Positions 45,290 through 57,812 of a stretch of 64,000 nt of DNA are shown one piece after another; position 1 is the stretch's first letter, and the number at the start of each line of letters is the position of its first letter. The notes beneath the pieces were generated by a model. The model ran no database searches. It had not been told where the DNA came from and saw only the letters and a program-made list of their open reading frames with translations. A program made the translations under genes and the position numbers. The DNA is from Phycisphaerae bacterium (lineage in GTDB: Bacteria; Planctomycetota; Phycisphaerae; UBA1845), in the NCBI GenBank assembly GCA_963666835.2, contig CAXXGO010000003.1, positions 416,001-480,000 on the forward strand, in the 5' to 3' direction.

Positions 45290-46417
45290 TCACCGTCGCC
45301 GGCTCCTCAGCAGAACGAGAAACACCGGAACGCCGATCAAGGCGGTAACCACGCCGATGGGCAGCGTCGCGCTGCCCAGGTGCCGCCCGGTTAACGAACC
45401 GGCAAGGCGCATCGTCAGTTGGGACGCCCAATCGCAGATAATCAGAAACGCCCCGCCCGCGATTGCCGACGCCGGAAGCAGGATCCGGCAATCCGGCCCT
45501 ACCAGCAGCGCTAGAGCATGTGGCACGACCAACCCGACGAAGCCGATCGGACCGCAATGGGCTACGACCGCCGCCGTCGCCAACGTCGCAACGAGCACAC
45601 AGACTCCCTGCAGCCGCGTGACATCGACCCCGCGCGCGGCCGCCAGCTCATCCCCAAGCCGGTACTGGTTTAGAGAACGGCTCGCCCCCACCAAGACTAT
45701 CCAGGCCGGCATAACAAACGGGAGAATCACTGCTCCGGAAACCCGCGTGATGGAATCGAGAGACCCCATCATCCATCGAACTGCGGTAAACGTAACCCGC
45801 TCGTCAGATACCGCCGTAACGAACATCATCATCGCCGAACAGAACAGACCGATCGTCACTCCGGCCAGCAGCAGCTCGTTCGAAGTAAGCCGGCGCGAGC
45901 CTCGGGCGATCAAAAACACCGCCCCCACTACGATGACCGCTCCGCCAAACGCGCAGAGCGCCGGCGAGGAGATTCCCAACACCGCAACCGTCCAACCAAG
46001 CCGGATGGCAATCAGAGCGCCGAGTGACCCGCCGCTGGCAATGCCGAGCGTATAGGGCGTCGCAAGGGAGTTCCGAAACAAAACCTGAAACGTCGCCCCG
46101 CAAAGAGCGAGCGTGATACCAACCTGCAAAGCCAGCAGACTCCGCGGGAACCGCTGATCGAAGATGTGCCGGGCTGTTGCTGCGAAACCGGCGGCTTCCT
46201 CCTCGGATACGGTGCCGTCCCCATCGATGTCGGCAAACGCCCGTCCCTGCAGCTCACTTGGCGCGATCTCCATCCCCATTCGCGCCCGCCAGACATCCGC
46301 CCAACCGAACGTGCCCGACTCCGTTCCGATCCCGGGGCTGATGATAAGCAAGGTCAGCACGCCGGCGGTGCCCGCGGCTAGTTGCAGCACATATTTTCTT
46401 CGCGTAAGGCCGGTCAT
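45290..46417 (-). CDS. Iron-siderophore/cobalamin ABC transporter permease (FecCD/BtuC family)
   Basis: RFPRSLLA, FQVLFRNSLATPYTLGIASG, WMMGSL, GPIGFVGLVVPH, PIGVVTALIGVP. Confidence 0.93.
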   Translation of the reverse strand: MTGLTRRKYVLQLAAGTAGVLTLLIISPGIGTESGTFGWADVWRARMGMEIAPSELQGRAFADIDGDGTVSEEEAAGFAATARHIFDQRFPRSLLALQVGITLALCGATFQVLFRNSLATPYTLGIASGGSLGALIAIRLGWTVAVLGISSPALCAFGGAVIVVGAVFLIARGSRRLTSNELLLAGVTIGLFCSAMMMFVTAVSDERVTFTAVRWMMGSLDSITRVSGAVILPFVMPAWIVLVGASRSLNQYRLGDELAAARGVDVTRLQGVCVLVATLATAAVVAHCGPIGFVGLVVPHALALLVGPDCRILLPASAIAGGAFLIICDWASQLTMRLAGSLTGRHLGSATLPIGVVTALIGVPVFLVLLRSRRR

Positions 46418-47208
46418 CCGTTCCCCGCCGCCTCCCCCGCCGGGACGATCCACCACCGTGGGGAATCCCCTGCCATCCTAATCGCCGAAAGGTCTACGCC
46501 GTATACCGGCTGGAGGATTTCCGGAGTCAGAACCTCGGCCGGCGGCCCGCTCGCTATCTGAACGCCATCGTTGAGCACCAGCACATCCGAGCAGAATTGT
46601 GCCGCCAGGTTGACATCGTGCGTCACGACCACCACCGCAAGCCCCTCCCGCACCGCACGATCCCGCAAGATACCAAAGATGTCCAATTGATGCCTAAGGT
46701 CCAGCGATGCGGTAGGCTCATCCAGCAGGAGAAGCTCAGGTTCCTGAGCCAGCGCCGCCGCCAGATGAACGCGCTGGGCCTCGCCGCCGGAAAGTGTCGC
46801 CATCCTTCGTTCCGCAAACGGCAGCGTGGCCGTCCGCTGCATAGCACCCTCCACAATCTCAAGGTCCTCGGCGTTCTCGAATAGGCCAAACGGCCGGTGC
46901 GGAAACCGCCCGAGCAGAACCACCTCTCGAACAGAGAGGTCGATATCGCCGGACACCTGCTGGGGCACGAGAGCGACCCTCCGAGCCCGTTCGCGCGCGG
47001 GGATATCCGCAACCGCAGCCCCGCCGAGGGTAATCACGCCTTGCGTCGGCTTAGTCAACCCGGCCATCAAGCGTAACAGAGTGCTCTTACCCGCGCCGTT
47101 AGGCCCGACGATGGCCCAGTGTTGACCGCCGCCGATCGACAGCGAGACCGGCCCCAGAAACTCCGGTCGGTTCGGAAAGCCGAATTGCACATCTTCGAGG
47201 ACGAGCAT
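46414..47208 (-). CDS. Iron-siderophore/cobalamin ABC transporter ATP-binding protein
   Basis: GPNGAGKST, LSGGEAQR, LLLDEPT, HDVNLA. Confidence 0.95.
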   Translation of the reverse strand: MLVLEDVQFGFPNRPEFLGPVSLSIGGGQHWAIVGPNGAGKSTLLRLMAGLTKPTQGVITLGGAAVADIPARERARRVALVPQQVSGDIDLSVREVVLLGRFPHRPFGLFENAEDLEIVEGAMQRTATLPFAERRMATLSGGEAQRVHLAAALAQEPELLLLDEPTASLDLRHQLDIFGILRDRAVREGLAVVVVTHDVNLAAQFCSDVLVLNDGVQIASGPPAEVLTPEILQPVYGVDLSAIRMAGDSPRWWIVPAGEAAGNG

Positions 47209-47218
47209 GGACTTGGCC

Positions 47219-48163
47219 TTAAGGCTCAATCTCGTCCTCCGAATGGAGCAGTCGGGAAAGTCTCTCGATGATCTCCACATAACGCGGAGAGGGGATCAGG
47301 CAATTGTCTTCCGTGAGGAAGTACACGCGGTCGTTGTCCAGGGCGGGCACCCCCTGGAGCTGCCTCCATTGCTCGAGCATCTCCTGACGAATTGCCGGAG
47401 TAAGCTCCACCTCGGGCATAAGCTCCACGATGACCTCCGGCCTGCGGGCCACGATCCCCTCCGCACTCACCTGGGGGTACGGCATGTCCACGTGGCCAAA
47501 GACGTTTCGCCCGCCCGCAATCTCCAACATCTCGTGCAGGAACGTCCCCTTGCCGGTGGTCAAGACGTTCGCCAGACGGCCCGGGCGCCGCGCCACGGTA
47601 AGAAGGACCCCCGGACGTTGCCGACCCGTGACCCGATCGCGAATGGCCTGCAGGCGGCGGCGCAGATCCATCCGCAGACTCCGAGCTTCGTCAGCGCAGC
47701 CGAGGTAGCGGCCTAATTCGGTTATTCCGGTCTCCACGTCAGCCAGGGTCTCCGTCCTATCGAAGTAGATCGGAATATCCAGCCTGTCACAGAGTGACTC
47801 CACTGAGTCACTCCGCCCGCGCAGCACCAGAAGATCAGGACGCAGGGCGACGATCCTCTCAAGATCAGGATCGAACAGCCCCCCCACGCGCGGCCGCTCG
47901 ATAAGCTCGGGCGGATACACGCAGAACTTGCTCACCCCCACTATCCGATCAGCAACCCCTAGCGCACAGAGAACCTCCGCCGAGTTCGGGGCAATTGTGA
48001 CAATCCGTTGCGGCCCGCGAGGTGCGGAAGTTGCCTCGACGGGTGCCTTGGAGGGATCCGGCGAATTCGCGCTTGCGGCAAGGCCCAACACCCCGGCCAG
48101 GCCGACCGCCAGCAACATCAGCCGGTAGAACCGCCGCCTTGTCAGATAGCTTTGCGCGAACAT
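47219..48163 (-). CDS. Periplasmic binding protein (BtuF/FepB family)
   Basis: RIVTIAPNSAEVLCALG, VGVSKFCVYP, DLERIVALRPDL, PSPR. Confidence 0.9.
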   Translation of the reverse strand: MFAQSYLTRRRFYRLMLLAVGLAGVLGLAASANSPDPSKAPVEATSAPRGPQRIVTIAPNSAEVLCALGVADRIVGVSKFCVYPPELIERPRVGGLFDPDLERIVALRPDLLVLRGRSDSVESLCDRLDIPIYFDRTETLADVETGITELGRYLGCADEARSLRMDLRRRLQAIRDRVTGRQRPGVLLTVARRPGRLANVLTTGKGTFLHEMLEIAGGRNVFGHVDMPYPQVSAEGIVARRPEVIVELMPEVELTPAIRQEMLEQWRQLQGVPALDNDRVYFLTEDNCLIPSPRYVEIIERLSRLLHSEDEIEP

Positions 48164-48248: not shown

Positions 48249-50012
48249 TCAGACTTTGGGGACGAGACAGGCATCCTGCACACTGTGGCCACAGATGCTC
48301 GCTACGCTAACAGTGGCGCGAGGTCGCTCCGCCTTCCCGGGCGACCAACAGAACAACCGATCGCGAAGCTCATTCGTAGCGACGATCAGATCAGGGGCAA
48401 CCTCGACTCGACGCAAAGTCTGACCGCCCGCCTCATAACGACAGGCGAAGCTGTCGCCTATCACACAGGCATGGACGTGCAAAGACGTGTCCGTGAAGAC
48501 CAAACGCCGCACACCCTGCGTCGCCAGCAACCAAACCGACTCGGCCGCCCGTTGTGACCCGCGGTGCAAACGCTCCGGACTCGAGTCTTGCCCTGGTCTC
48601 CAGCGTAGGACATCCCCCGCGCTGTTGCCCGCAAACACGCCATCCGAAGTGGCACAGACCGCGGAAATCGCGCCCTCGCTGCCAGTGTAAACGCTCGCGG
48701 GACGATGCGACCGGTCGTCAGCCGGCCAGCGGATTACTCGATCGTCGATCGCACAATACAAATCGCCGGCTAGTAAGGTAATCCCCCGGACGGTCTGCGC
48801 ATCGCGGGTCATTGACTCAAAACACCGCCGGACGTTCTCTACGTCACCGATATCCCACTCACATATACCCAGCTCGGAGTGAGAGCCAAACACCCGCCCG
48901 CCAACTGCTACCACCGAGTTGAACCCGTATCGAACCACAGGGGCTTCCGCAACGGGCAGAACCAGGTCCGGTGCCGACGCTTCCAACGGCAGCCGGTAGA
49001 CGCCGGTGGCGGCGCCCAGCAACAACGCCTGTTCGCCGTTTTCCGCCTGCGCTAACTGCACCGACCGTACCGCCCCCACGGCCCCAGCAATCGGTATCGT
49101 CATTCGCGGAGCTTCCAAGCTATCCGCAGCGAAGAAGAGCAATTCGCCTCCTGCGCTCACGACGATCCACTGAGTGCGGTCCGTTGGCACGTCGGAGGCG
49201 AATAAAGCCTCATACAACTCGCCGCGCTGGTGTTCGGAGAACGTGCGGAGCAACTCCGGCATATCCGCATCCGGCGAGTCCGCGGACATTGCTTTTAGAC
49301 GCTCCAACATCGACGCCAGATGGTCGAGATGGTCGCCCTGAGCCCGTTCAAGGGCACGCTGGACCCCGCGGGCGGCCACGTGTTCGGCTTGGCTGCGCAC
49401 CGCCCGCTGCTGAGTATCACGAATCTGACGAAGCGTGTCCGACGAAACCAGCACGGTGGGCTTGCCCTGCAAAGTCAATCCGGCGGCGAAACACGCGCCA
49501 TCAAGAGCCGCAACGAGGGCATCGGCCACCCTCTCGCCGGCACTGCCCTCCACAAGTTCCGCGGCCTCGTGCTCGGCGGTTGACCGCAGTACGCTATCGC
49601 GAACTGCAGATGCGAGAGCCGTTAAAAGGGACTCGGTCCGCACAGTGCGTCTGCTGCCGAGGATCTTCTCGCTGAACGATCGCAATTCACCGACTTCCGG
49701 AACGGGCGCCACACTCAACCGAACATCCGCCCGACATCGATATCGATCACTCGTGAGGGCATCTTCCACCCTCAAGGCCACCTCGACCGGAGAGACCCGC
49801 ACAAAGAGCAGATCGTCCGCGTCACCCGCCTCGACCACCGCCCCGGGCGGGGCCACTACGTGGTCGCGAGTCGTTCGAGTTACAAGCGCCGCCCAACCGT
49901 GTGGCAGGTCCAATGACCGAGTCAGCAAGCCGAAAACATCCGCAGCCGGAGCAATAGCGGCGAGGTTGCCGTCGTCAGCAAAGAACTTTTTGAGATTGAA
50001 CTTCCCAGCCAT
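48249..50012 (-). CDS. SPFH/Band-7-like N-terminal domain, coiled coil and C-terminal beta-propeller (WD40-like) protein
   Basis: N-terminal beta-rich region then helices ending in CFAAGLTL (SPFH-like end); helical linker; repeated 4-strand blades with AGNSAGDVLRW-type motifs. Confidence 0.55.
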   Translation of the reverse strand: MAGKFNLKKFFADDGNLAAIAPAADVFGLLTRSLDLPHGWAALVTRTTRDHVVAPPGAVVEAGDADDLLFVRVSPVEVALRVEDALTSDRYRCRADVRLSVAPVPEVGELRSFSEKILGSRRTVRTESLLTALASAVRDSVLRSTAEHEAAELVEGSAGERVADALVAALDGACFAAGLTLQGKPTVLVSSDTLRQIRDTQQRAVRSQAEHVAARGVQRALERAQGDHLDHLASMLERLKAMSADSPDADMPELLRTFSEHQRGELYEALFASDVPTDRTQWIVVSAGGELLFFAADSLEAPRMTIPIAGAVGAVRSVQLAQAENGEQALLLGAATGVYRLPLEASAPDLVLPVAEAPVVRYGFNSVVAVGGRVFGSHSELGICEWDIGDVENVRRCFESMTRDAQTVRGITLLAGDLYCAIDDRVIRWPADDRSHRPASVYTGSEGAISAVCATSDGVFAGNSAGDVLRWRPGQDSSPERLHRGSQRAAESVWLLATQGVRRLVFTDTSLHVHACVIGDSFACRYEAGGQTLRRVEVAPDLIVATNELRDRLFCWSPGKAERPRATVSVASICGHSVQDACLVPKV

Positions 50013-50070
50013 GATTCCGTCACTCAATGATCGCTTCGCAGTCTCAGCAAGCGCTGTAGCCGCCGCACCC

Positions 50071-51189
50071 TCATTTCTCCCCCTGCGCAAACTTCTCGTA
50101 GCGGACCAGATCTGAAGGATGCACCGAAGGGGGATTCTCCTCGATCGCCGTCAGAACGTCCGCCACCGAGATCGGCCGCGGCTCCTGCCCCGCAATCGCC
50201 TCCATAAACGGGCGCTGGGCAGCCCGCTGGGCAATACTCTTGATGTCGGCCCCGCTGTATCCGGCAAGCCGGTCGCATAGTGCGCCGAAATCCACATCGT
50301 CCGCCAGCGGCCGGTCTCCGAAGTGGATTTCCAGCAGTCTATACCGTGCCGGAGCGTCCGGCAGACCCACGTGGATCTTCGCATCGAGCCGACCGGGGCG
50401 GAGCATGGCCTCGTCCAACATCCAAGGCCGGTTTGTGGCTCCGACAAACAGCAGAGCTCGATCGCCTCTGCGGTCGAAACCCTCCAGCTCCTGCAGAATC
50501 TGCGGCACAACCCGTTGCATAACCGTCGAGCTGTCGCTCTTTCGCTTTGGTACCAGAGCCTCCGTCTCGTCGAGGAAGATCACCGACGTAGGTTCCGCCT
50601 TGGCTGCGTCAAAAAGCTTCTGAATGTTCTGCTCCGCCTCCCCGACCCACTTGCTGAGCATCTGCGCCGGGCTGACTACGAAGAACGTAGCGTCAATCTC
50701 GTGGGCAATGGCCTTGGCGATCATCGTTTTGCCCGTACCCGGCGGGCCGTACAGCAAGATACCCCCGCCGCGGCCAATCCCATACTTCTGAGCCAGCTCA
50801 GGATGCGCAAACGGGTAAATCATCTTTAGCCGGATCTCCTCCTTGACATCATCCAGCCCGGCAATGTCCTCGAAACCGATGGTCGGCTTGTCTTTAACGA
50901 TCCAGTCCGAGGCATCCGCCCCGGAGTCGCCCTCTTTCTCGCGTTGCCGCTGGCGGGCGGCTTTCGGTGACTTGTGCAAACGATCGCAGTCCTTGGCCAG
51001 GTCGATCAACTCCGCGGCCAGCTCCTCGTGCTGACGCTGGGCCTCGGGCGATTGGGTCGCCGCGGCCAGCTCGATCATGCACTCGGCCGCATCGACCAGA
51101 TACGCCTTGGCCGCCAAGTAGTCGCCCTTCTGATAAGCGGCCACCCCTTTGCTCTTGAGTCGATCAAATGTGGCAAACGAAACTGCCAT
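50071..51189 (-). CDS. Vps4/CdvC-like AAA ATPase with N-terminal MIT-like three-helix domain
   Basis: Single AAA domain: KPTIGFEDIAGL, GILLYGPPGTGKT, LSKWVGE, IFLDE, ATNRPWMLD; C-terminal PSV...DL.RYEKF helix. N-terminal A-YQKGDY-AA-Y...AAELIDLA helices are MIT-like. Confidence 0.8.
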   Translation of the reverse strand: MAVSFATFDRLKSKGVAAYQKGDYLAAKAYLVDAAECMIELAAATQSPEAQRQHEELAAELIDLAKDCDRLHKSPKAARQRQREKEGDSGADASDWIVKDKPTIGFEDIAGLDDVKEEIRLKMIYPFAHPELAQKYGIGRGGGILLYGPPGTGKTMIAKAIAHEIDATFFVVSPAQMLSKWVGEAEQNIQKLFDAAKAEPTSVIFLDETEALVPKRKSDSSTVMQRVVPQILQELEGFDRRGDRALLFVGATNRPWMLDEAMLRPGRLDAKIHVGLPDAPARYRLLEIHFGDRPLADDVDFGALCDRLAGYSGADIKSIAQRAAQRPFMEAIAGQEPRPISVADVLTAIEENPPSVHPSDLVRYEKFAQGEK

Positions 51190-51210
51190 GCGGTCCCTTT
51201 GGGCTTGTTC

Positions 51211-51585
51211 CTATTCGCGCCTCGTCACCGGGAGCCGGCGAACACGAATCGCTGTATCTCCGATCACGACAATCGCCCCGCGGACGAGGTCATCGTCAAG
51301 CTCATCCAGATTCGCGAGCAAAGCAGATGTATGCTCCTCTGGTCGACCGTTGTGCATTCTGAGGATGATGACCGACGGTTGGGCGTCAAACGAGCCTGCT
51401 AGCAACGTGCCGAAGTCCGTGTCCTGCGTAATGATGACACGTTCTTCGTCTGCCGCACGCCGGAGAATAGTCGCATCGTCAGCGGCCGCCAGTCCCAGAT
51501 CGCGAACGTGTACCGCATCGTTCCCCTCGGCTGCCAGATCGCGTGCAACTCTCCACGAAACGGCTTGGTCAACCAAGAACCTCAT
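51211..51585 (-). CDS. DUF5615 PIN-like toxin (VapC45-type)
   Basis: MRFLVDQ, HVRDLGL..ADD..I, RVIITQDTDFG. Confidence 0.9.
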   Translation of the reverse strand: MRFLVDQAVSWRVARDLAAEGNDAVHVRDLGLAAADDATILRRAADEERVIITQDTDFGTLLAGSFDAQPSVIILRMHNGRPEEHTSALLANLDELDDDLVRGAIVVIGDTAIRVRRLPVTRRE

Positions 51586-51586
51586 C

Positions 51587-51829
51587 TCAGGATCCAGTCT
51601 CTTTCAGTGGGACAATCCGGTCTTCGGTCAGTGTTGCGGCATAGCGCAGCGCCTCGACAATATCTTCTTCCTCGAGATCGGGGTATGCCTCCAGGATCTC
51701 ACCGTGAAGCATACCACTGGCCAAGCAACGTACGACGGTGGCGACGGGGATCCGCAAACCGCGAATGCACGCCTGCCCACCCATCTGTTTGGGATCAAAA
51801 GTCAACCGTCCCCATTCCATTGTTCTCAT
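51587..51829 (-). CDS. DUF433 antitoxin (VapB45-type)
   Basis: DPKQMGGQACIRGLRIPV, EILEAYPDLEEEDI.EAL.YAA. Confidence 0.92.
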   Translation of the reverse strand: MRTMEWGRLTFDPKQMGGQACIRGLRIPVATVVRCLASGMLHGEILEAYPDLEEEDIVEALRYAATLTEDRIVPLKETGS

Positions 51830-52048
51830 CCTTCACGCAATCACCGTCTGTCACGCAGAAAGCCCCGGTTTCCGCGCCGTAGTGTCTACCCCAAGAACTC
51901 AAGCCCCATCGCAATTGGCAACTCGGCGGAAGCCCCCCCTTCTCAAAACGAAATTTCATTATCGTGCTCGTGCGGAACAAACACCAAACCCTATGATAAG
52001 AGCCCCCCTCATACCAGCAACGTATTCGTGCCACACGAATTCCCAGCA

Positions 52049-52774
52049 TCAAAGCTCCTCGAAGAAGCGATTCTGCCAGTCCGGAATGCCGTTCACTCCT
52101 GGGCACGCTCCGGTGTAAGGTTGTTCAAGAACTCGCGCCGGGATCCAAACATACTCGTGTTCTCTCAATGTCGCACGTACTGTTTGGCGGACTTCATCCT
52201 TGAGCCCGTCTTCATTGACAATCCCAGCCAGCCGACCGAAGTTGCTCGCACATATCCGTGCATAACCCCATTCCTCGTTATTGATAAGGCAAACAGCCGG
52301 CAACCGGACAGCGCCATGATAGCTCGCGTCCTGTATTTGCGGGCACATCTCCACCTTCGCTTGATCCGGAGAACAGTCAAAATCAGTAGTCAGGTTGAGA
52401 GAGAGCTTCGTGCAGAGATCATCCGCAAACCGCCTGAACTCATCGACCGCAACATCCCAGACAAAACCAAACGGGCATTCACTGCGCTTCGGGTCATCTG
52501 CCTCTGACAGAACCTCTAACCACACGACATCTGCCGGCCTCTTGAGACGCGGAGACTCCATTGAGTTCGGTGTCGTATCATTCCGCGCACTGTTGGCGTT
52601 CTCAATCCTATCCTGGCCGATAGCCAGCACCGCCTCGCTCAGCGACAAACCGAAAACACCGCGGATCACTCGGATGGAGGAAACCGCAGTAGCTCCATCT
52701 GACATCAGCGTATCGAACACATCCACCGGCGTTGCACCGCTTGTCTTTAACTCCACGTATTTCGTCGTGTCCAT
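52049..52774 (-). CDS. Hypothetical protein (appears lower in GC than its flanks)
   Basis: 241-aa ORF; N-terminal SIRVIRGVFGLSLSEA resembles a ribosomal L7/L12-like helical motif. Confidence 0.6.
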   Translation of the reverse strand: MDTTKYVELKTSGATPVDVFDTLMSDGATAVSSIRVIRGVFGLSLSEAVLAIGQDRIENANSARNDTTPNSMESPRLKRPADVVWLEVLSEADDPKRSECPFGFVWDVAVDEFRRFADDLCTKLSLNLTTDFDCSPDQAKVEMCPQIQDASYHGAVRLPAVCLINNEEWGYARICASNFGRLAGIVNEDGLKDEVRQTVRATLREHEYVWIPARVLEQPYTGACPGVNGIPDWQNRFFEEL

Positions 52775-52946
52775 TGTACGGCTCGCGACTCAGGCGGTAT
52801 TCCTTGGATCGGTGCGAACGCAAGTGACGAAGCTCTGCTCTTGCCACCCAGGCCACCTCGAACCACTTTGCCGCTCCTTGGCACAGGTAGAATAGGGGAA
52901 AGCACTCTCGACTGTCCCAATGCTCTTGCCCACGAGTGGATCCCCT

Positions 52947-53555
52947 CTACTTCTGCTTCTCCCCCTCGCCCTTGAGGGCGTTCAGTTCGGCACGCAGGCC
53001 GGCGAGTTTGTCTAGTTCCTTCTGATGCTCCGCTTCCGTCTCGGCGTCGATCAGGCGGTCGATCTCGTCGTCGGTGACGACCTCGCCCGCCTTGCTCATC
53101 TCAATGTCTTGGGCGGCGACGTCCTCCACCGTATCGAGGAACATATCCATCCGCTCTTCCATGGTCTGAGACTGCACCATGGCCTTCTCCCAATCGGCCT
53201 GGGTCTTGACCAGATCCGTCTCGCCGAAGAGCTTGCCGATCTCCCCGGCCATCATCCCCATCGCCTGGGCAAAATCGGCCGACGCCTCCGCCTGCCGCTT
53301 GACCAACAAAGCGTTCTTGACGGACAGAAGCTGTCTTTCGAGCATCCGGCGGATAGTGGCGGTCTTCTTGAGCGAGTTGCGAATGAAGACGTATTGCTGG
53401 GTGTCGCCGATCTTCTTGGCGTGCTGGGCGTTCTTGATGAACTCATCCTGGAACTTGCCCTGCTCGCGAATCGACTTCTCTATCCGGCGGATCCCCTGCC
53501 GGATCTTGATGTCTCGTTCGATCCGCCGCTCTTCCGGTGATTTGAAAAGTCCCAT
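52947..53555 (-). CDS. ESCRT-III (Snf7 superfamily, Vps2/Vps24/CHMP2-3-like) protein
   Basis: 202 aa, all helical. MGLFK N-terminus; basic hairpin KIRQGIRRIEKSIRE...AKKIGD; acidic DDEIDRLI helix; C-terminal LAGLRAELNALK (MIM1-like). By eye it matches the CHMP3 layout. Confidence 0.7.
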   Translation of the reverse strand: MGLFKSPEERRIERDIKIRQGIRRIEKSIREQGKFQDEFIKNAQHAKKIGDTQQYVFIRNSLKKTATIRRMLERQLLSVKNALLVKRQAEASADFAQAMGMMAGEIGKLFGETDLVKTQADWEKAMVQSQTMEERMDMFLDTVEDVAAQDIEMSKAGEVVTDDEIDRLIDAETEAEHQKELDKLAGLRAELNALKGEGEKQK

Positions 53556-53642
53556 GAGAATTAACTCTCAGATATCCAAACGCGTCCACCGGCCAACCGC
53601 CGCAACCGATTACAGCTTCCCCCGGCGCCCCTGAGCCCGCGG

Positions 53643-53858
53643 TCAATAATACTCGCGCTCCGGAATGATAAGCCAAAGCACGAGGTAGATGACGCACATA
53701 ATGAAACCGGGAAAACCAATTGGCAGTATCGATAACAGTGCATAAACCACCCGCACGGCAACCGGGTCAATACCCAGGTACTCGCCGAGTCCGCCGCACA
53801 CCCCGCCGACCCATCGGTTGGCCACGCTTCTTCGCAACTGCTTCGGATAACCATTCAC
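53643..53858 (-). CDS. pspC: PspC domain protein
   Basis: LRRS..NRWVGGVCGGLGEYLGIDP..VRV...YLVLWLIIPE. Confidence 0.92.
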   Translation of the reverse strand: MNGYPKQLRRSVANRWVGGVCGGLGEYLGIDPVAVRVVYALLSILPIGFPGFIMCVIYLVLWLIIPEREYY

Positions 53859-53906
53859 CGTCTTAATCTCATTCCATCCGCCACCGCGGTCCGCCCGCCG
53901 ACCCGG

Positions 53907-54512
53907 CTACTGTTCGGGAGCCGCTTGTCTTTCCCGCACGCTCCGATCGGCTTCGTCGAAGCCCTCGGTTGTGTCGGTGATAGCCCCGGCGTCCATCTTC
54001 TCCCACACGTTCATTACGGTCTGCCCCGCTTCTGTCAGACCGGCGGCACCTTCGTCCACCGTAGCCCCCAACGCGAGAATCTCGTCCAGCCTCTCCTGGT
54101 AGACCTCGGCCCTGATCCCGTCCGACTCGATTAGCTTGCCGAGCCGCAGCATGTCCGCTTCACTGATCAACCCCAGCTTCGACGATTGCCCGGCTCGTTC
54201 GGTGTTCTCGCGCAACATACGCAGGCGGGATACGGTCATCATCTCTTTGCTGCGGACGTTGAGCTGCCGCGAGAGCATCAACTGCTCACTCGTGCGCAGT
54301 TCAAACTCCTGGGCGTAAGCCCGCCGAAGCTCCGGAGTCTTTTCCTGGGCTCCGCGCTCGAAGATCCCCTGCTTCTCCTTGGCAAGCTTCGCGATCTTGT
54401 TGAGCAGGCGCGTACGGTCCTTCTCGAGCAGCAGTTCCTGCCGCCGCAACTCCGTCCGCGTCATCCGCGAGAGCGGTCTCTTTCGCTTGGTGAGCCATTC
54501 GAGAAAGGCCAT
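53907..54512 (-). CDS. ESCRT-III/Snf7-like coiled-coil protein
   Basis: 201 aa. Amphipathic MAFLEWLTKRK N-terminus, basic helical hairpin, acidic C-terminal half. Confidence 0.55.
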   Translation of the reverse strand: MAFLEWLTKRKRPLSRMTRTELRRQELLLEKDRTRLLNKIAKLAKEKQGIFERGAQEKTPELRRAYAQEFELRTSEQLMLSRQLNVRSKEMMTVSRLRMLRENTERAGQSSKLGLISEADMLRLGKLIESDGIRAEVYQERLDEILALGATVDEGAAGLTEAGQTVMNVWEKMDAGAITDTTEGFDEADRSVRERQAAPEQ

Positions 54513-54578
54513 AGTCAACACATCCCCCGCAAAGCGGAAAAACCCACTAGTGACATCGCATCGTCACAATACCGACTT

Positions 54579-56042
54579 TCAGATAGCCTCCGGATCGGCC
54601 GGTCGATCCTTCTGCTTCTCAGGCACGTCCGTAGTACCGGAGTCCGCCAGCGGCGGCATGGCCGAATCCGCCGCGGCGGTCGAAGCCGGCTCCTCCGCGG
54701 TCGGGGCTGCCTTGTCCGGCTCGACCGGGGCGGCGGCGGGCCCCTCGAACTCGCGCAGGATGGCCAGCTCATCTTCGCTCATTAGGGCTTGTTCCATGCC
54801 GGTTTCGAGCCCCCCGACCATCTCCGCGTCGGCCTGCAGCGTCTCGAGCATCTCCTCGGCCGCGACGGCGTGTTCGGTCAGCTCCGTTGTGTCGGGCAGC
54901 TTGGCCGCCTCGCCCTGCTGGATCAACGTCAAGTTGTGGATGTCCGTACTGATGATGTTGATCTGCTGATTCAGCATCGCCGCAGTCGTGTTCTGCCGAG
55001 AGATATCCTTGCGCATCTGGGCCAGTTGCGCCGCGATCCGCCGCCGCGGAACTTGCGACGTCGCAGCCTTGCCCTCTTCGAGGAGCGTAGCCTCCTTCTT
55101 CTCCAGCTTGCCGATGTCTTCGTAGATCCGATCGCGGCGTTGGGCCAGCGCCGCCCGCCGTTCCGCCAGCAAGTTGATCTTCTCCGCGTCGTCGCCTTCG
55201 CCGGAGAAGAGCTGTTTGATTCGATCGATGACGTTCATCGAGTGTCTCTCCTGACGGTGCACTGGTGCACCCCGGAACAACAGGAATTCGCCTTCCTTAC
55301 GGGTGAGGCGTAGCTCCGGCTCAGCGTCCGCCACTTGCTGGAATCCCGCGCGGACTACCTCCTCAGGAAGTCCCGTCTCTCTAGCTACCGACGATACCGA
55401 TAACCCGCCGGTGAGCAAGTCGGCGCTGCGGGCTTCGATCCCGTCACGAACCCGCTCCAGTTTCTGCTTCGCCCCTTCCGGATCGAATATTTTCAACAAC
55501 CGCGGATCCACATTTTCGCCGCCGCCGGTGGTCTTCCAGCCACCGCACCCGTCCGGCTCAATCAACACCACGGTTACATCCCCGGCAGAAAGTGAAGCCG
55601 CCCGAGCCTCTTGCGAAAAGCCCGTTGTGCTGCACACGCCGATGATGTGCGGCACCCGCTCGTCGGCTACCAACTTGCGAACGTGATCGCTCAGCTCCCC
55701 CAGACCGATCGGCGGCGGTTCGCTACTGCCCGGGTCGGCGAAGTGACTCAAGGGCGACAGAACCGAGGCAACCGCGACCCCTGTCCGTCGCTTCCAAAAT
55801 AGAAAACGACGTTCATAGCCATGTAGCGCGATCCGACGGTTGGCCGGAAGCGTTTTGAGCAGTTCACGGTCGTAATTGCGGTTCTTGGCCATCAAAGCCC
55901 GCAGCCGGTCACCCTCGTCATGCTGCGACCGCTGCCAGGATGATCCGCGTAAGTACTTTCGCTTCGCCGCTCCCAGATTCGCCTCGACCCCCGAGAGGAA
56001 CTCGGTCTCGTACTGAAGAGCTTTCGATGCGTCAATCGTCAT
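54579..56042 (-). CDS. Fusion protein: Mrr/REase-like fold, winged helix, C-terminal ESCRT-III (Snf7/Vps20-like) domain
   Basis: IIGVCSTTGFSQEAR...VVLIE (Mrr_cat-like); LSVSSVARETGLPEEVV...LRLTRKEGEFLLFR (wHTH); then MNVIDRIKQLFSG and a long helical hairpin with an acidic Pro-rich tail. Confidence 0.55.
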   Translation of the reverse strand: MTIDASKALQYETEFLSGVEANLGAAKRKYLRGSSWQRSQHDEGDRLRALMAKNRNYDRELLKTLPANRRIALHGYERRFLFWKRRTGVAVASVLSPLSHFADPGSSEPPPIGLGELSDHVRKLVADERVPHIIGVCSTTGFSQEARAASLSAGDVTVVLIEPDGCGGWKTTGGGENVDPRLLKIFDPEGAKQKLERVRDGIEARSADLLTGGLSVSSVARETGLPEEVVRAGFQQVADAEPELRLTRKEGEFLLFRGAPVHRQERHSMNVIDRIKQLFSGEGDDAEKINLLAERRAALAQRRDRIYEDIGKLEKKEATLLEEGKAATSQVPRRRIAAQLAQMRKDISRQNTTAAMLNQQINIISTDIHNLTLIQQGEAAKLPDTTELTEHAVAAEEMLETLQADAEMVGGLETGMEQALMSEDELAILREFEGPAAAPVEPDKAAPTAEEPASTAAADSAMPPLADSGTTDVPEKQKDRPADPEAI

Positions 56043-56048
56043 CTCGAT

Positions 56049-56318
56049 CTACTTCCGATCAGGGGGGCCATCAATCAACGGTGCTCCGCACTGGCTGCAG
56101 TATCGCCCTTCACGAACTTCGGTCTTGCCACATTGCTCCCTCGAACAGACTCGCACTCGGGGTCTTTGTCCTCGACCACCCCGCGGACCGCGAAGGACGG
56201 CGAAGAACCCCTTGCCGACCTCCCCGAAAGCCCGCGCAATGACATACAACAAGCCAAACAACAGGGCCGCGATCCCCAGTACGAGAATGAGAATGATAAC
56301 CAGAGCATCACCGGTCAT
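56049..56318 (-). CDS. Small single-TM protein with C-terminal zinc ribbon
   Basis: N-terminal TM; CSREQCG...YCSQCG. Confidence 0.75.
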   Translation of the reverse strand: MTGDALVIILILVLGIAALLFGLLYVIARAFGEVGKGFFAVLRGPRGGRGQRPRVRVCSREQCGKTEVREGRYCSQCGAPLIDGPPDRK

Positions 56319-56337
56319 CCCCGCCCCCCTAACGTAC

Positions 56338-57366
56338 TCACTTCAGAACACTCAGGTCGTTGCCGCAGAAGATGCAGAACCGATCACTCGCATGCACGAA
56401 GGCCTGGCAAGCGGCGCATCGCGGCACCGATGCCACCAGTTGCTGCCCGCATTGTATACAGAACTGATCGTCGCGGTGGACCGGGTTGTTGCACGCCGGG
56501 CAAACCGGATCCCCCCCCGGCGGCACCCAACACCGCGAGGCCGCCCGCTCCGTCTCCGCCGGCGCCCCCGCCACAGCGTCCAGCATCTGCCGCGCGGAGG
56601 AGAATCGTCTTTCGTATCCCGTGTACGACCGCTGGAATACCTGATCCAAATGGGCGGGAACCCCGGACCGCAACGAACTCGGCAAATCACCGCCCTGAGG
56701 CTTCTTGCCGGTCAGCATCTCGAACAGGACTACTCCGCATGAAAACAGGTCACTGCGTGCATCCAGCTCTGCACCTTCCCGTTGTTCCGGAGACATATAA
56801 GCCAGAGTACCCGCAATGCTCCGCCCCTCTTCGGTCTGCATGCTCCCGCTCTGCATTATCGATTGCGCGGTGACACCGCCCACGCGCCCGAGACCGAAAT
56901 CCGTAATCTTGACAGATTGCTCACTGATGGAGGCAAGCTCCTCGAGCGGATGACTCAACAGCACGTTCGCCGGCTTGATGTCTCGATGGACAAGATTGTT
57001 CTCATGCGCCGCCGCCAGCGCTTGAAGGATTCCCCGAAGGACCGCCACGGCCGCACCGACGGGAAACTCCCCCTGATACCGATCAACCGCCTCCCGCAGA
57101 GACGGGCCGTCCACGTACTCCATAACCAGATACGGCGGGTCGGCATAGGGATCGAGATCAATGGCCCGGACGATGTTGGGATGGCGTAACCCGTGCACCG
57201 CAGTACCCTCGCGCTGCAGGTTCCGAACAAACTGCGGGTCGGTCGGGATCTTGATGGCCACCGCCTCACCGAACACGTGATGGCGCGCCCGCCAGACCTC
57301 GCCGAAGCTGCCCGCCCCGACGCGCTGCTCAAGCAAATAGTTGCTTATCCGGTCTCCCTCTTTCAC
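56338..57366 (-). CDS. Ser/Thr protein kinase with C-terminal double zinc ribbon
   Basis: GTG 57366 after GGAGGG. GAGSFGEV, VAIK, HRDIKPAN, DFGLG, YMSPEQ; CPAC..FCIQCG and CAAC..FCIFCG. Confidence 0.92.
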   Translation of the reverse strand: MKEGDRISNYLLEQRVGAGSFGEVWRARHHVFGEAVAIKIPTDPQFVRNLQREGTAVHGLRHPNIVRAIDLDPYADPPYLVMEYVDGPSLREAVDRYQGEFPVGAAVAVLRGILQALAAAHENNLVHRDIKPANVLLSHPLEELASISEQSVKITDFGLGRVGGVTAQSIMQSGSMQTEEGRSIAGTLAYMSPEQREGAELDARSDLFSCGVVLFEMLTGKKPQGGDLPSSLRSGVPAHLDQVFQRSYTGYERRFSSARQMLDAVAGAPAETERAASRCWVPPGGDPVCPACNNPVHRDDQFCIQCGQQLVASVPRCAACQAFVHASDRFCIFCGNDLSVLK

Positions 57367-57407
57367 AAAGACGATCCCTCCACCGCCATCCACAATCACA
57401 AGGCGAA

Positions 57408-57812
57408 TCAGACCTCCTCCAGCCGCTCGGCTTGGAATTCGCACACCTTGAAATTGTAGACTCCGGCCGCAAGAAAACCAAGTACCAGGACCACCCACGT
57501 CAGGGCGGCATGCCCAGTCACCCTCCCGATCATCCAGAAAGCCACCAGAACGTCGGCCAGCAGATACCCGATCAGCATGACTGCGGCGGCCACGTTGGAG
57601 TCCTTCGAGACCACCCATGACGTCACGAAAAACGTGGCCCACGGCAGAACCAGCACGAACCCCAGCCACGCAACAACATACTTGACCGTTGACCAGATCG
57701 TCTCCAACTGCTCGGGATGATTCCAGAACCAGATTACGGCTCCCGCCCCCGAGACGACCAGAACGGCGGTCACTACCTTGCTACCTACGTATTGTCCAAT
57801 GGCGGCCAGCAT
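57408..57812 (-). CDS. 4-TM membrane protein
   Basis: GAGGAG SD; four hydrophobic segments; first gene of the cluster. Confidence 0.75.
   Translation of the reverse strand: MLAAIGQYVGSKVVTAVLVVSGAGAVIWFWNHPEQLETIWSTVKYVVAWLGFVLVLPWATFFVTSWVVSKDSNVAAAVMLIGYLLADVLVAFWMIGRVTGHAALTWVVLVLGFLAAGVYNFKVCEFQAERLEEV

Follow-up and report, generated by a model that had tools for sequence, protein, structure and literature searches.

The window analysed here is a 64,000-nucleotide stretch of the genome of a Phycisphaerae bacterium of the phylum Planctomycetota (assembly GCA_963666835.2, contig CAXXGO010000003.1, positions 416,001 to 480,000 of the forward strand), and its minus strand carries at 48249–57812 a cluster of twelve co-oriented genes. 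[quoted passage not shown] All genes are present in the order and at the places that it gave, with core intergenic gaps of 6–87 bp. Three predicted ESCRT-III-type domains, termed E3a, E3b and E3c, lie at the center of the cluster. E3a (54579–55238) forms the C-terminal portion of a fusion gene product of 487 residues (open reading frame 54579–56042) and starts at a conserved internal Met; the N-terminal portion of this fusion, termed Ndom (55257–56042), is made of an alpha/beta domain and a winged helix. E3b (53907–54512) and E3c (52947–53555) are encoded separately, and E3c ends with a conserved amphipathic helix. Further along comes AAA1 (50071–51189), a single-domain AAA ATPase (E 4e-39) whose N-terminus is MIT-like and whose C-terminus has the Vps4 helix, followed by a protein combining an SPFH (band 7) domain, a coiled coil and a WD40-like beta-propeller (48249–50012). 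Pfam Band_7 is matched by 9 of the 30 members of the latter family (best E 2e-9), whose profile also matches WD40 propellers.

The upstream end of the cluster encodes a small membrane protein (57408–57812), which has no match in Pfam or NCBIfam; its description as a four-transmembrane protein holds as about four hydrophobic segments, but these were counted by eye only. Next to it lies a Ser/Thr protein kinase with a C-terminal double zinc ribbon (56338–57366; Pkinase E 8e-40, DZR E 7e-9), with intact catalytic motifs and a likely GTG start, as judged from the sequence upstream, which resembles a ribosome-binding site. Two accessory genes encode a transmembrane helix with a zinc ribbon (56049–56318, weak Pfam zinc-ribbon matches) and a PspC domain protein (53643–53858, Pfam PspC 77.8 bits). 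The earlier assignments of the kinase, the zinc-ribbon protein, PspC and the SPFH/propeller protein are supported by Pfam or profile matches, weak ones in the case of the zinc-ribbon protein. Between E3c and AAA1 are inserted an open reading frame (52049–52774) and a toxin–antitoxin-like pair, DUF433 (51587–51829) and DUF5615/PIN (51211–51585), recognized by Pfam with E 8e-23 and 3e-26. Promoter and terminator motif matches at the locus stay at chance level.

The case for an ESCRT-type system starts with E3c. A profile built from 55 E3c sequences was compared with the PDB, and all eight matches at E≤1 were CHMP3, Snf7 or CHMP2A (best E 1e-5), with no PspA or Vipp1 among them, in agreement with the CHMP2/3-like character first proposed for this protein. 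Pfam Snf7 (PF03357) is matched by 22 of the 55 members at E≤0.05 (best 2.7e-6), and one distant member, P0246, lies above the Snf7 cut-off (35 vs 27.3 bits). The E3c protein of the window gives no Pfam match on its own, and when each of the three helical proteins was scanned as a single sequence against Pfam and NCBIfam, neither Snf7 nor PspA was returned. A whole-genome Snf7 search found nothing over the cut-off; the same was true of 14/14 controls including Sulfolobus, hence this search is uninformative. On the strength of the profile matches, E3c is assigned to the ESCRT-III proteins of Snf7/CHMP type. Its predicted structure, with a predicted local distance difference test score (pLDDT) of 74, consists of helices at residues 7–49, 52–110, 115–149 and 162–201, a long hairpin and following helices in an ESCRT-III-like layout.

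E3a and E3b are homologous to each other (hhalign 95%), and E3b shows weak similarity to E3c (59%, E 9e-5); E3a and E3c, at 2.6%, have no detectable similarity by hhalign. Predicted helices of E3a, from a model of the fusion made without alignment (pLDDT 53), span residues 271–279, 285–326, 330–375, 385–416 and 423–433. The best PDB matches of E3b are limited to CdvB (E 0.098) and CHMP2A (E 0.96). The proposal of three Snf7-like proteins thus stands directly for E3c, but for E3a and E3b only through their archaeal homologues. The basic N-terminal and acidic C-terminal halves attributed to the three helical domains were confirmed in all of them, with net charges over residues 1–100 and over the rest of +11/-15, +12/-11 and +3/-21; the split is kept in 55/55 members of the E3c family and in 54/54 and 29/42 members of the other two. 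Amphipathic N-termini had also been claimed for all three. The N-terminal helix is clearly amphipathic in E3a alone (moment 0.67 over 11 residues), but the starts of the other two domains, hydrophobic then basic, have moments of 0.03 and 0.14. The C-terminal tail of E3c displays an amphipathic pattern in 47 of 55 members, against a mean of 1.1 and a maximum of 5 after shuffling, this pattern having been chosen after viewing the alignment.

AAA1 was described as an MIT-AAA ATPase of Vps4 type. The C-terminal Vps4_C helix (PF09336) is recognized at 28 bits for a cut-off of 21.3, and in 24 of the 34 aligned family members at E≤0.01. In these 34 ATPases the Walker A and B motifs and R267 are invariant, as is a Vps4-like PW motif just upstream of the sequence RPGR. 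The profile of the N-terminal helical domain matches 2mpk, which we take to be an MIT-type domain, from end to end over profile positions 10–67 (E 1.7e-4), as well as the T. peptonophilus Vps4 (E 1.5e-4) and 2w2u (E 0.49); TPR proteins score higher on its first hairpin. The best NCBIfam score of AAA1 is to CdvC over residues 14–368 (227 bits), closely followed by PAN (226.8 bits), both under their cut-offs. Its phmmer matches in the PDB are dominated by two-domain Cdc48/p97, which was not taken as affinity, and its Atlas neighbours outside the planctomycete clusters include Vps4 and archaeal clusters.

The AAA phylogeny that the first-pass annotation had recommended places AAA1 closer to Vps4 than to Cdc48. 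Trees were computed under LG+G4, with no mixture model, no eukaryotic, katanin or spastin rows, and without the bacterial Vps4-like ATPase of Ravi et al. (2024). From 270 domains, seven odd single-domain AAAs and two long-branch Cdc48 domains were dropped and the set was thinned to final trees of 41–43 rows; a set of 87 rows was analysed by a quick tree only. In the 43-row tree, AAA1 clusters with one archaeal member (L251) at 100/100; this clade is the sister group of all the Vps4 sampled (100/99) and lies outside the crown Vps4 (92/95), and the 41-row tree agrees. When the long-branch rows are kept, the node joining AAA1 and Vps4 has an SH-like approximate likelihood-ratio (SH-aLRT) value of 86, unresolved. 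Grouping AAA1 with Cdc48 D2 was rejected by the approximately unbiased test (p-AU 0.005), as were its groupings with AAA2, the second ATPase of other loci (p-AU 0.0002), and with AAA2 plus the Main clade of archaeal ESCRT systems (p-AU 0.03). AAA1 has an MIT-like N-terminus and a Vps4_C helix, but with its Cdc48-type RPGR and its position outside the crown it is by these sequence criteria not a canonical Vps4. AAA2 itself groups with the Main-clade Vps4 (99/99). Bacterial AAA2 nests among archaeal rows, and archaeal monophyly is not rejected (p-AU 0.155); the simplest reading would be a putative transfer of AAA2 from archaea to bacteria.

Among the known systems closest to this cluster is the Main clade. 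As defined by Makarova et al. 2024 (PMC10936438), it comprises arCOG08177, 09748, 09747/09749 and 07402, the Vps4 of arCOG01307, and a Ser/Thr kinase and phosphatase (STK/STP). According to the same study, arCOG08177 (Cas2-like and TBP) occurs in all Main-clade systems, arCOG09747/09749 are labelled "Snf7 family", phosphoprotein sorting is the proposed function, and a Vps4 is recognized operationally by an MIT domain or by ESCRT genes in its neighbourhood; AAA1 is adjoined by such genes. Named proteins of T. peptonophilus and H. mukohataei served as references, and planctomycete PspA proteins (16 usable of 20 fetched) as controls. The Ndom profile matches named arCOG09748 proteins (E 1e-13 and 1.6e-19) over their C-terminal half only, and the low-confidence model of Ndom shows three helices then a beta-hairpin at 188–257. 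The E3b profile retrieves arCOG09747 and 09749 (E 4e-12 and 4e-11; hhalign 98.6%, against 6% for PspA), the E3a profile arCOG09749 (E 1.6e-7; by hhalign the arCOG09747/9 set scores 95.5% and PspA 3%), and the E3c profile the T. peptonophilus arCOG07402 protein (E 3e-20), the three H. mukohataei arCOG07402 proteins being left unmatched. PspA controls score E≥0.3 against the bacterial profiles. The T. peptonophilus (Thermococcus) locus, which lies on a plasmid and is listed as ESCRT in Makarova's table, reads 08177, 09748, 09747, 09749, kinase, Vps4, phosphatase, 07402, close to the bacterial order.

Further archaeal relatives came from genome scans, in which 3/201 Thermoproteota and 13/201 members of the phylum of Methanimicrococcus were matched (eight of the latter fetched); the phylum of Methanobrevibacter, sampled with 151 genomes, gave no strong match to AAA2. 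One archaeal operon (L217) holds homologues of Ndom, E3b and AAA2, and its 600-residue protein matches plasmid genes given as arCOG09748 in Makarova's Table S2. Some Thermoproteota (L217, L231, L232) have Main-clade-type ESCRT operons with FHA and kinase genes, and the genome of the first (G341; L217, L218) has a separate cdvABC as well. E3c homologues occur in two archaeal loci (L250:12944-13498, L251:9894-11646); in L251 the homologue is followed by an RPGR-type AAA1, so the sub-module exists in archaea too. Judged from these profile relations, which pair each of the three helical domains and the winged-helix domain with a named Main-clade component, the bacterial cluster shares ancestry with the Main clade, would work in a like manner, and is related to a described archaeal ESCRT type rather than being a de novo bacterial system. 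It is classed as a variant, not as a member, because arCOG08177 was not found in the bacterial loci or the source genome.

Besides this absence, the differences from the Main clade are the bacterial host, the shortened arCOG09748 homologue, here fused to an ESCRT-III domain, the second ATPase lineage AAA1, which is the sole survivor in the source organism's own order, and an SPFH domain joined to a beta-propeller; in the bacterial core neither a phosphatase nor an FHA gene is seen. The kinase is shared with the Main clade. In CdvABC of the TACK archaea and in the Asgard and eukaryotic ESCRT-III/Vps4 systems, several ESCRT-III paralogs likewise accompany an AAA ATPase with an MIT domain, which is MIT-like here, and a Vps4_C helix. 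Unlike in those systems, the ATPase lies outside crown Vps4, and CdvA and ubiquitin-linked parts are unseen; the winged helix precedes the ESCRT-III domain, whereas it is C-terminal in CdvB. PspA/Vipp1 share the superfamily hairpin, and PspC and SPFH (band 7) neighbours, but the present proteins have no similarity to PspA profiles and are accompanied by a dedicated MIT-like AAA ATPase. Ravi et al. 2024 (PMC11237479) report Vps4-like AAA ATPases in bacteria including Planctomycetes, where a TPR/6TM gene has taken the place of snf7, and Snf7-clade genes that in some bacteria stand with other AAA ATPases; the present cluster, in contrast, retains three genes of Snf7 type. In the literature as far as it was accessible, this operon was not found described from bacteria, and the table rows and web application of Ravi et al. 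could hold such loci.

Conservation was followed in loci from close relatives in the same taxonomic order ("own-order") and from elsewhere in Planctomycetota ("distant"). E3c is matched in 59 of 301 genomes sampled from the whole phylum and the fusion in 36 of 41 close relatives, the source genome being included in both counts. Sixty loci were fetched, for 40 of the 58 distant matches (long contigs favoured) and 20 of the 35 close ones; some are cut off by contig ends. The usual order is Ndom, E3a, E3b, [AAA2], E3c, AAA1, SPFH-propeller, membrane protein, kinase. Ndom is found in 36/40 distant and 20/20 own-order loci, E3a in 35/40 and 20/20, E3b in 37/40 and 20/20, E3c in 40/40 (by selection) and 19/20, AAA1 and the SPFH/propeller gene each in 21/40 and 16/20. 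The 57408–57812 membrane protein, homologous to the C-terminal portion of a longer one in distant loci, recurs in 13/40 and 18/20. The PspC gene (9/20) and the transmembrane zinc-ribbon gene (17/20), both indeed present as first annotated, appear in own-order loci but in 0/40 distant ones, and are thus order-specific additions. The linkage in other genomes that a neighbourhood survey was expected to reveal does recur across these 60 loci: the three paralogs of ESCRT-III type travel together with a winged-helix domain of arCOG09748 type, the MIT-like AAA ATPase, the SPFH/propeller protein and a kinase, and their linkage is not due to chance.

Of the 40 distant loci, 28 have AAA2 and 15 have both ATPases, against 0/20 own-order loci with AAA2; nor was AAA2 found in the source genome, which is 92% complete. 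In other planctomycete classes it lies between E3b and E3c (for example L032:8531-9748). Many planctomycete loci, the Chloroflexota loci L220 and L221 and the archaeal locus L251 have E3c as the gene immediately upstream of AAA1. Because such pairings recur, the data suggest that E3a/E3b and AAA2 make up one sub-module and E3c and AAA1 another, cut to one ATPase in the own order. One locus (L051) has two AAA2 copies, and E3b is duplicated in some loci. Just upstream of E3c, five distant loci (L031, L033, L041, L053, L066) have a gene of family F15, predicted to encode a lipoprotein-like coiled-coil protein. Most distant loci have Ndom and E3a as two genes; the fusion is found in 20/20 own-order loci, which led to the rejection of a read-through artefact as its origin. 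A Met is found at the junction in nearly all own-order fusions, and an internal translation start there is possible.

Retention reaches 10/10 in one family and 21/24 in the source's own family. Identity among the top 119 homologues is 86–94%, and the named close homologues are Planctomycetota, several of them Phycisphaerae. The same module occurs in 2 of 251 sampled Chloroflexota, plus one further genome (G347). Among representatives at 50% identity, 615 are matched by the E3c profile, and 4 of 30 distant E3c clusters had a member naming, or near, a taxon: Pirellulaceae, Planctomycetales, Clostridiales. Elsewhere, E3c-type domains are fused N-terminally to FtsK/SpoIIIE or RuvB, in one case with NERD (P0217, P0258, P0270, P0245, P0264), and one member of P0239, a related cluster of fused proteins, is named Clostridiales. 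Viral and metagenome scans gave no relatives of the cluster.

The insert between E3c and the ATPase, confirmed as an additional open reading frame plus toxin–antitoxin-like pair, has a GC content at third codon positions (GC3) of 0.59–0.62 (0.60 for the open reading frame), compared with 0.75–0.83 in the three ESCRT-III-type genes and the ATPase. The open reading frame has no Pfam or NCBIfam match and no homologue in the 60 other loci, and the DUF433/DUF5615 pair has no counterpart at this site in them. Because of this lower GC3 and the lack of counterparts, the inserted genes are regarded as passengers and not as parts of the system. The junction between E3c and the ATPase (window 51190–52946) carries inserts of about 0.8–3 kb in 6/20 own-order loci, which suggests an insertion hotspot; the T. 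gammatolerans operon is likewise interrupted, by an MNT-HEPN pair.

Taken as a whole, the earlier interpretation as an ESCRT-III/Vps4-like system is supported: it had named as contrary outcomes another fold for the helical proteins, a Cdc48/PAN-type ATPase devoid of an MIT domain, and unlinked genes in other genomes, and none of the three was found. The operon is very probably of ESCRT type. The fuller reading, to which a probability of about 0.6 is given, is a bacterial machine of ESCRT-III/Vps4 type that remodels membranes, is related to the Main-clade ESCRT of archaea and has a job other than division. By analogy with Cdv and eukaryotic ESCRT, its role would probably be the regulated formation of vesicles or internal membranes, the sorting of cargo or the sealing of wounds rather than routine division. 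The SPFH/propeller and membrane proteins would mark a patch of inner membrane and its cargo, and the winged-helix domain, here fused to E3a, would nucleate filaments. E3a, E3b and E3c would then co-polymerise on the cytoplasmic face through their basic N-terminal hairpins, and a hexameric AAA1 would grip the amphipathic E3c tail through its MIT domain and strip subunits off, driving constriction and scission, or sealing, of the bud neck. The kinase may switch or tag the process.

Several observations weigh against this ESCRT-type machine. Fold searches are not discriminating, with every Foldseek match at E>0.1 and no VIA Z above 10.7: for the E3c model, Foldseek ranks CHMP2A, CHMP3, CdvB and Loki CHMP4-7 at the top, and VIA has Snf7 (Z 9.9; 104 aligned residues, root-mean-square deviation 2.3) and PspA (Z 9.5) tied with generic hairpins. 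The strict MIM1 consensus (MIT-interacting motif) is found in 0/55 E3c tails. E3a and E3b have no significant match to Pfam Snf7 or to an ESCRT protein of the PDB, and because of this their probable identity is drawn from arCOG labels and weak similarity to E3c. Pfam MIT (PF04212) is not among the listed matches of AAA1, whose arginine-finger region reads RPGR as in Cdc48, when every sampled Vps4, including the CdvC, Asgard, Main-clade and AAA2 sequences, has RRF or SRF. On the side of the Main clade, an 11-sequence arCOG08177 profile gave a best E of 0.037 when run on the 60 loci and the window, and the source genome held no match at E≤0.01, and the Main-clade Vps4 paralog, AAA2, is missing from this genome as searched.

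The RPGR motif and the Cdc48/p97 proteins heading the PDB matches of AAA1 would also suit a PspA-like stress scaffold, adjoined by a Cdc48-type segregase with unrelated substrates and no Vps4-like coupling, as would the PspC gene inside the operon in 9/20 own-order loci and the lack of any PspA found in the source genome. Such a scaffold is improbable, since it sits badly with the rejected AAA1–Cdc48 grouping, the MIT-like domain and Vps4_C helix, and the absence of PspA similarity in profile searches. Replacement of PspA was rejected, PspA being found in 24/58 E3c-positive vs 58/242 E3c-negative genomes (a hand count, in which kin are not independent). A division machine analogous to CdvABC, independent of FtsZ, had been among the roles first envisaged; three paralogs with an ATPase do recall CdvB/B1/B2 with CdvC, conservation within the order is strong, and no FtsZ or tubulin was found in the 92% complete source genome. 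This role is nevertheless very unlikely, slightly more so than the scaffold, because E3c was not found in 16/16 genomes of the same class that are 98–100% complete; it was not found either in 242/301 genomes of the phylum, including 15/15 of another family. The archaeal relatives are moreover not of Cdv type, one genome having such an operon beside a separate cdvABC, and in the core nothing resembling CdvA was noticed.

A mobile module for defence or conflict, in which the kinase is set off by phage attack or contact and filaments of ESCRT-III then seal off, shed or breach the membrane, would account for other features: the patchy distribution (59/301 in the phylum, 2/251 Chloroflexota, 3/201 Thermoproteota), the archaeal relatives on plasmids, the toxin–antitoxin-like inserts here and in T. 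gammatolerans, the E3c domains fused to FtsK or to RuvB and NERD, and an automatic "viral defense" label on one distant member. It is nonetheless unlikely, although less so than the two preceding schemes: the module is single-copy and retained family-wide, its close homologues are highly similar, its GC is genome-like and its neighbours are housekeeping genes, and the core holds no nuclease or other effector and has no viral homologue.

An operon conserved in about one-fifth of the sampled Planctomycetota and some Chloroflexota contradicts recent reviews that deny bacteria such a machine; PMC7619361 states that a Vps4-like ATPase appears absent from bacteria. The operon provides a concrete, reconstitutable candidate for the shaping of planctomycete internal membranes and, from the bacterial side, a way into the Main-clade ESCRT of archaea, itself unstudied, and the AAA1 lineage bears on the proposed Cdc48-to-Vps4 transition. 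A bolder version, with somewhat less than even chances, is that many Planctomycetota lineages possess a complete ESCRT machine for scission, driven by ATP and made of several paralogs, which helps to build internal membranes or vesicles, with AAA1 as a surviving Cdc48-to-Vps4 intermediate that has its own ESCRT-III partner. This intermediate would have gained the MIT domain and the Vps4 tail and kept the Cdc48 arginine-finger region. On this bolder version, all three domains of life would have ESCRT-III/Vps4 systems.

Two neighbouring loci complete the picture. A periplasmic-binding-protein ABC transporter operon (45290–48163) follows on the same strand, 85 bp downstream of the cluster, and lies outside the conserved neighbourhood of the 40 distant loci. 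In the same genome, outside the window (C1, ~447000–469000, minus strand), a satellite locus free of any ESCRT-III or AAA profile match encodes an HTH/zinc-finger/Ndom protein (460331–461677), a probable lipoprotein, a membrane protein, a zinc-ribbon SPFH protein (456415–458259) and several near-identical Ser/Thr kinases.

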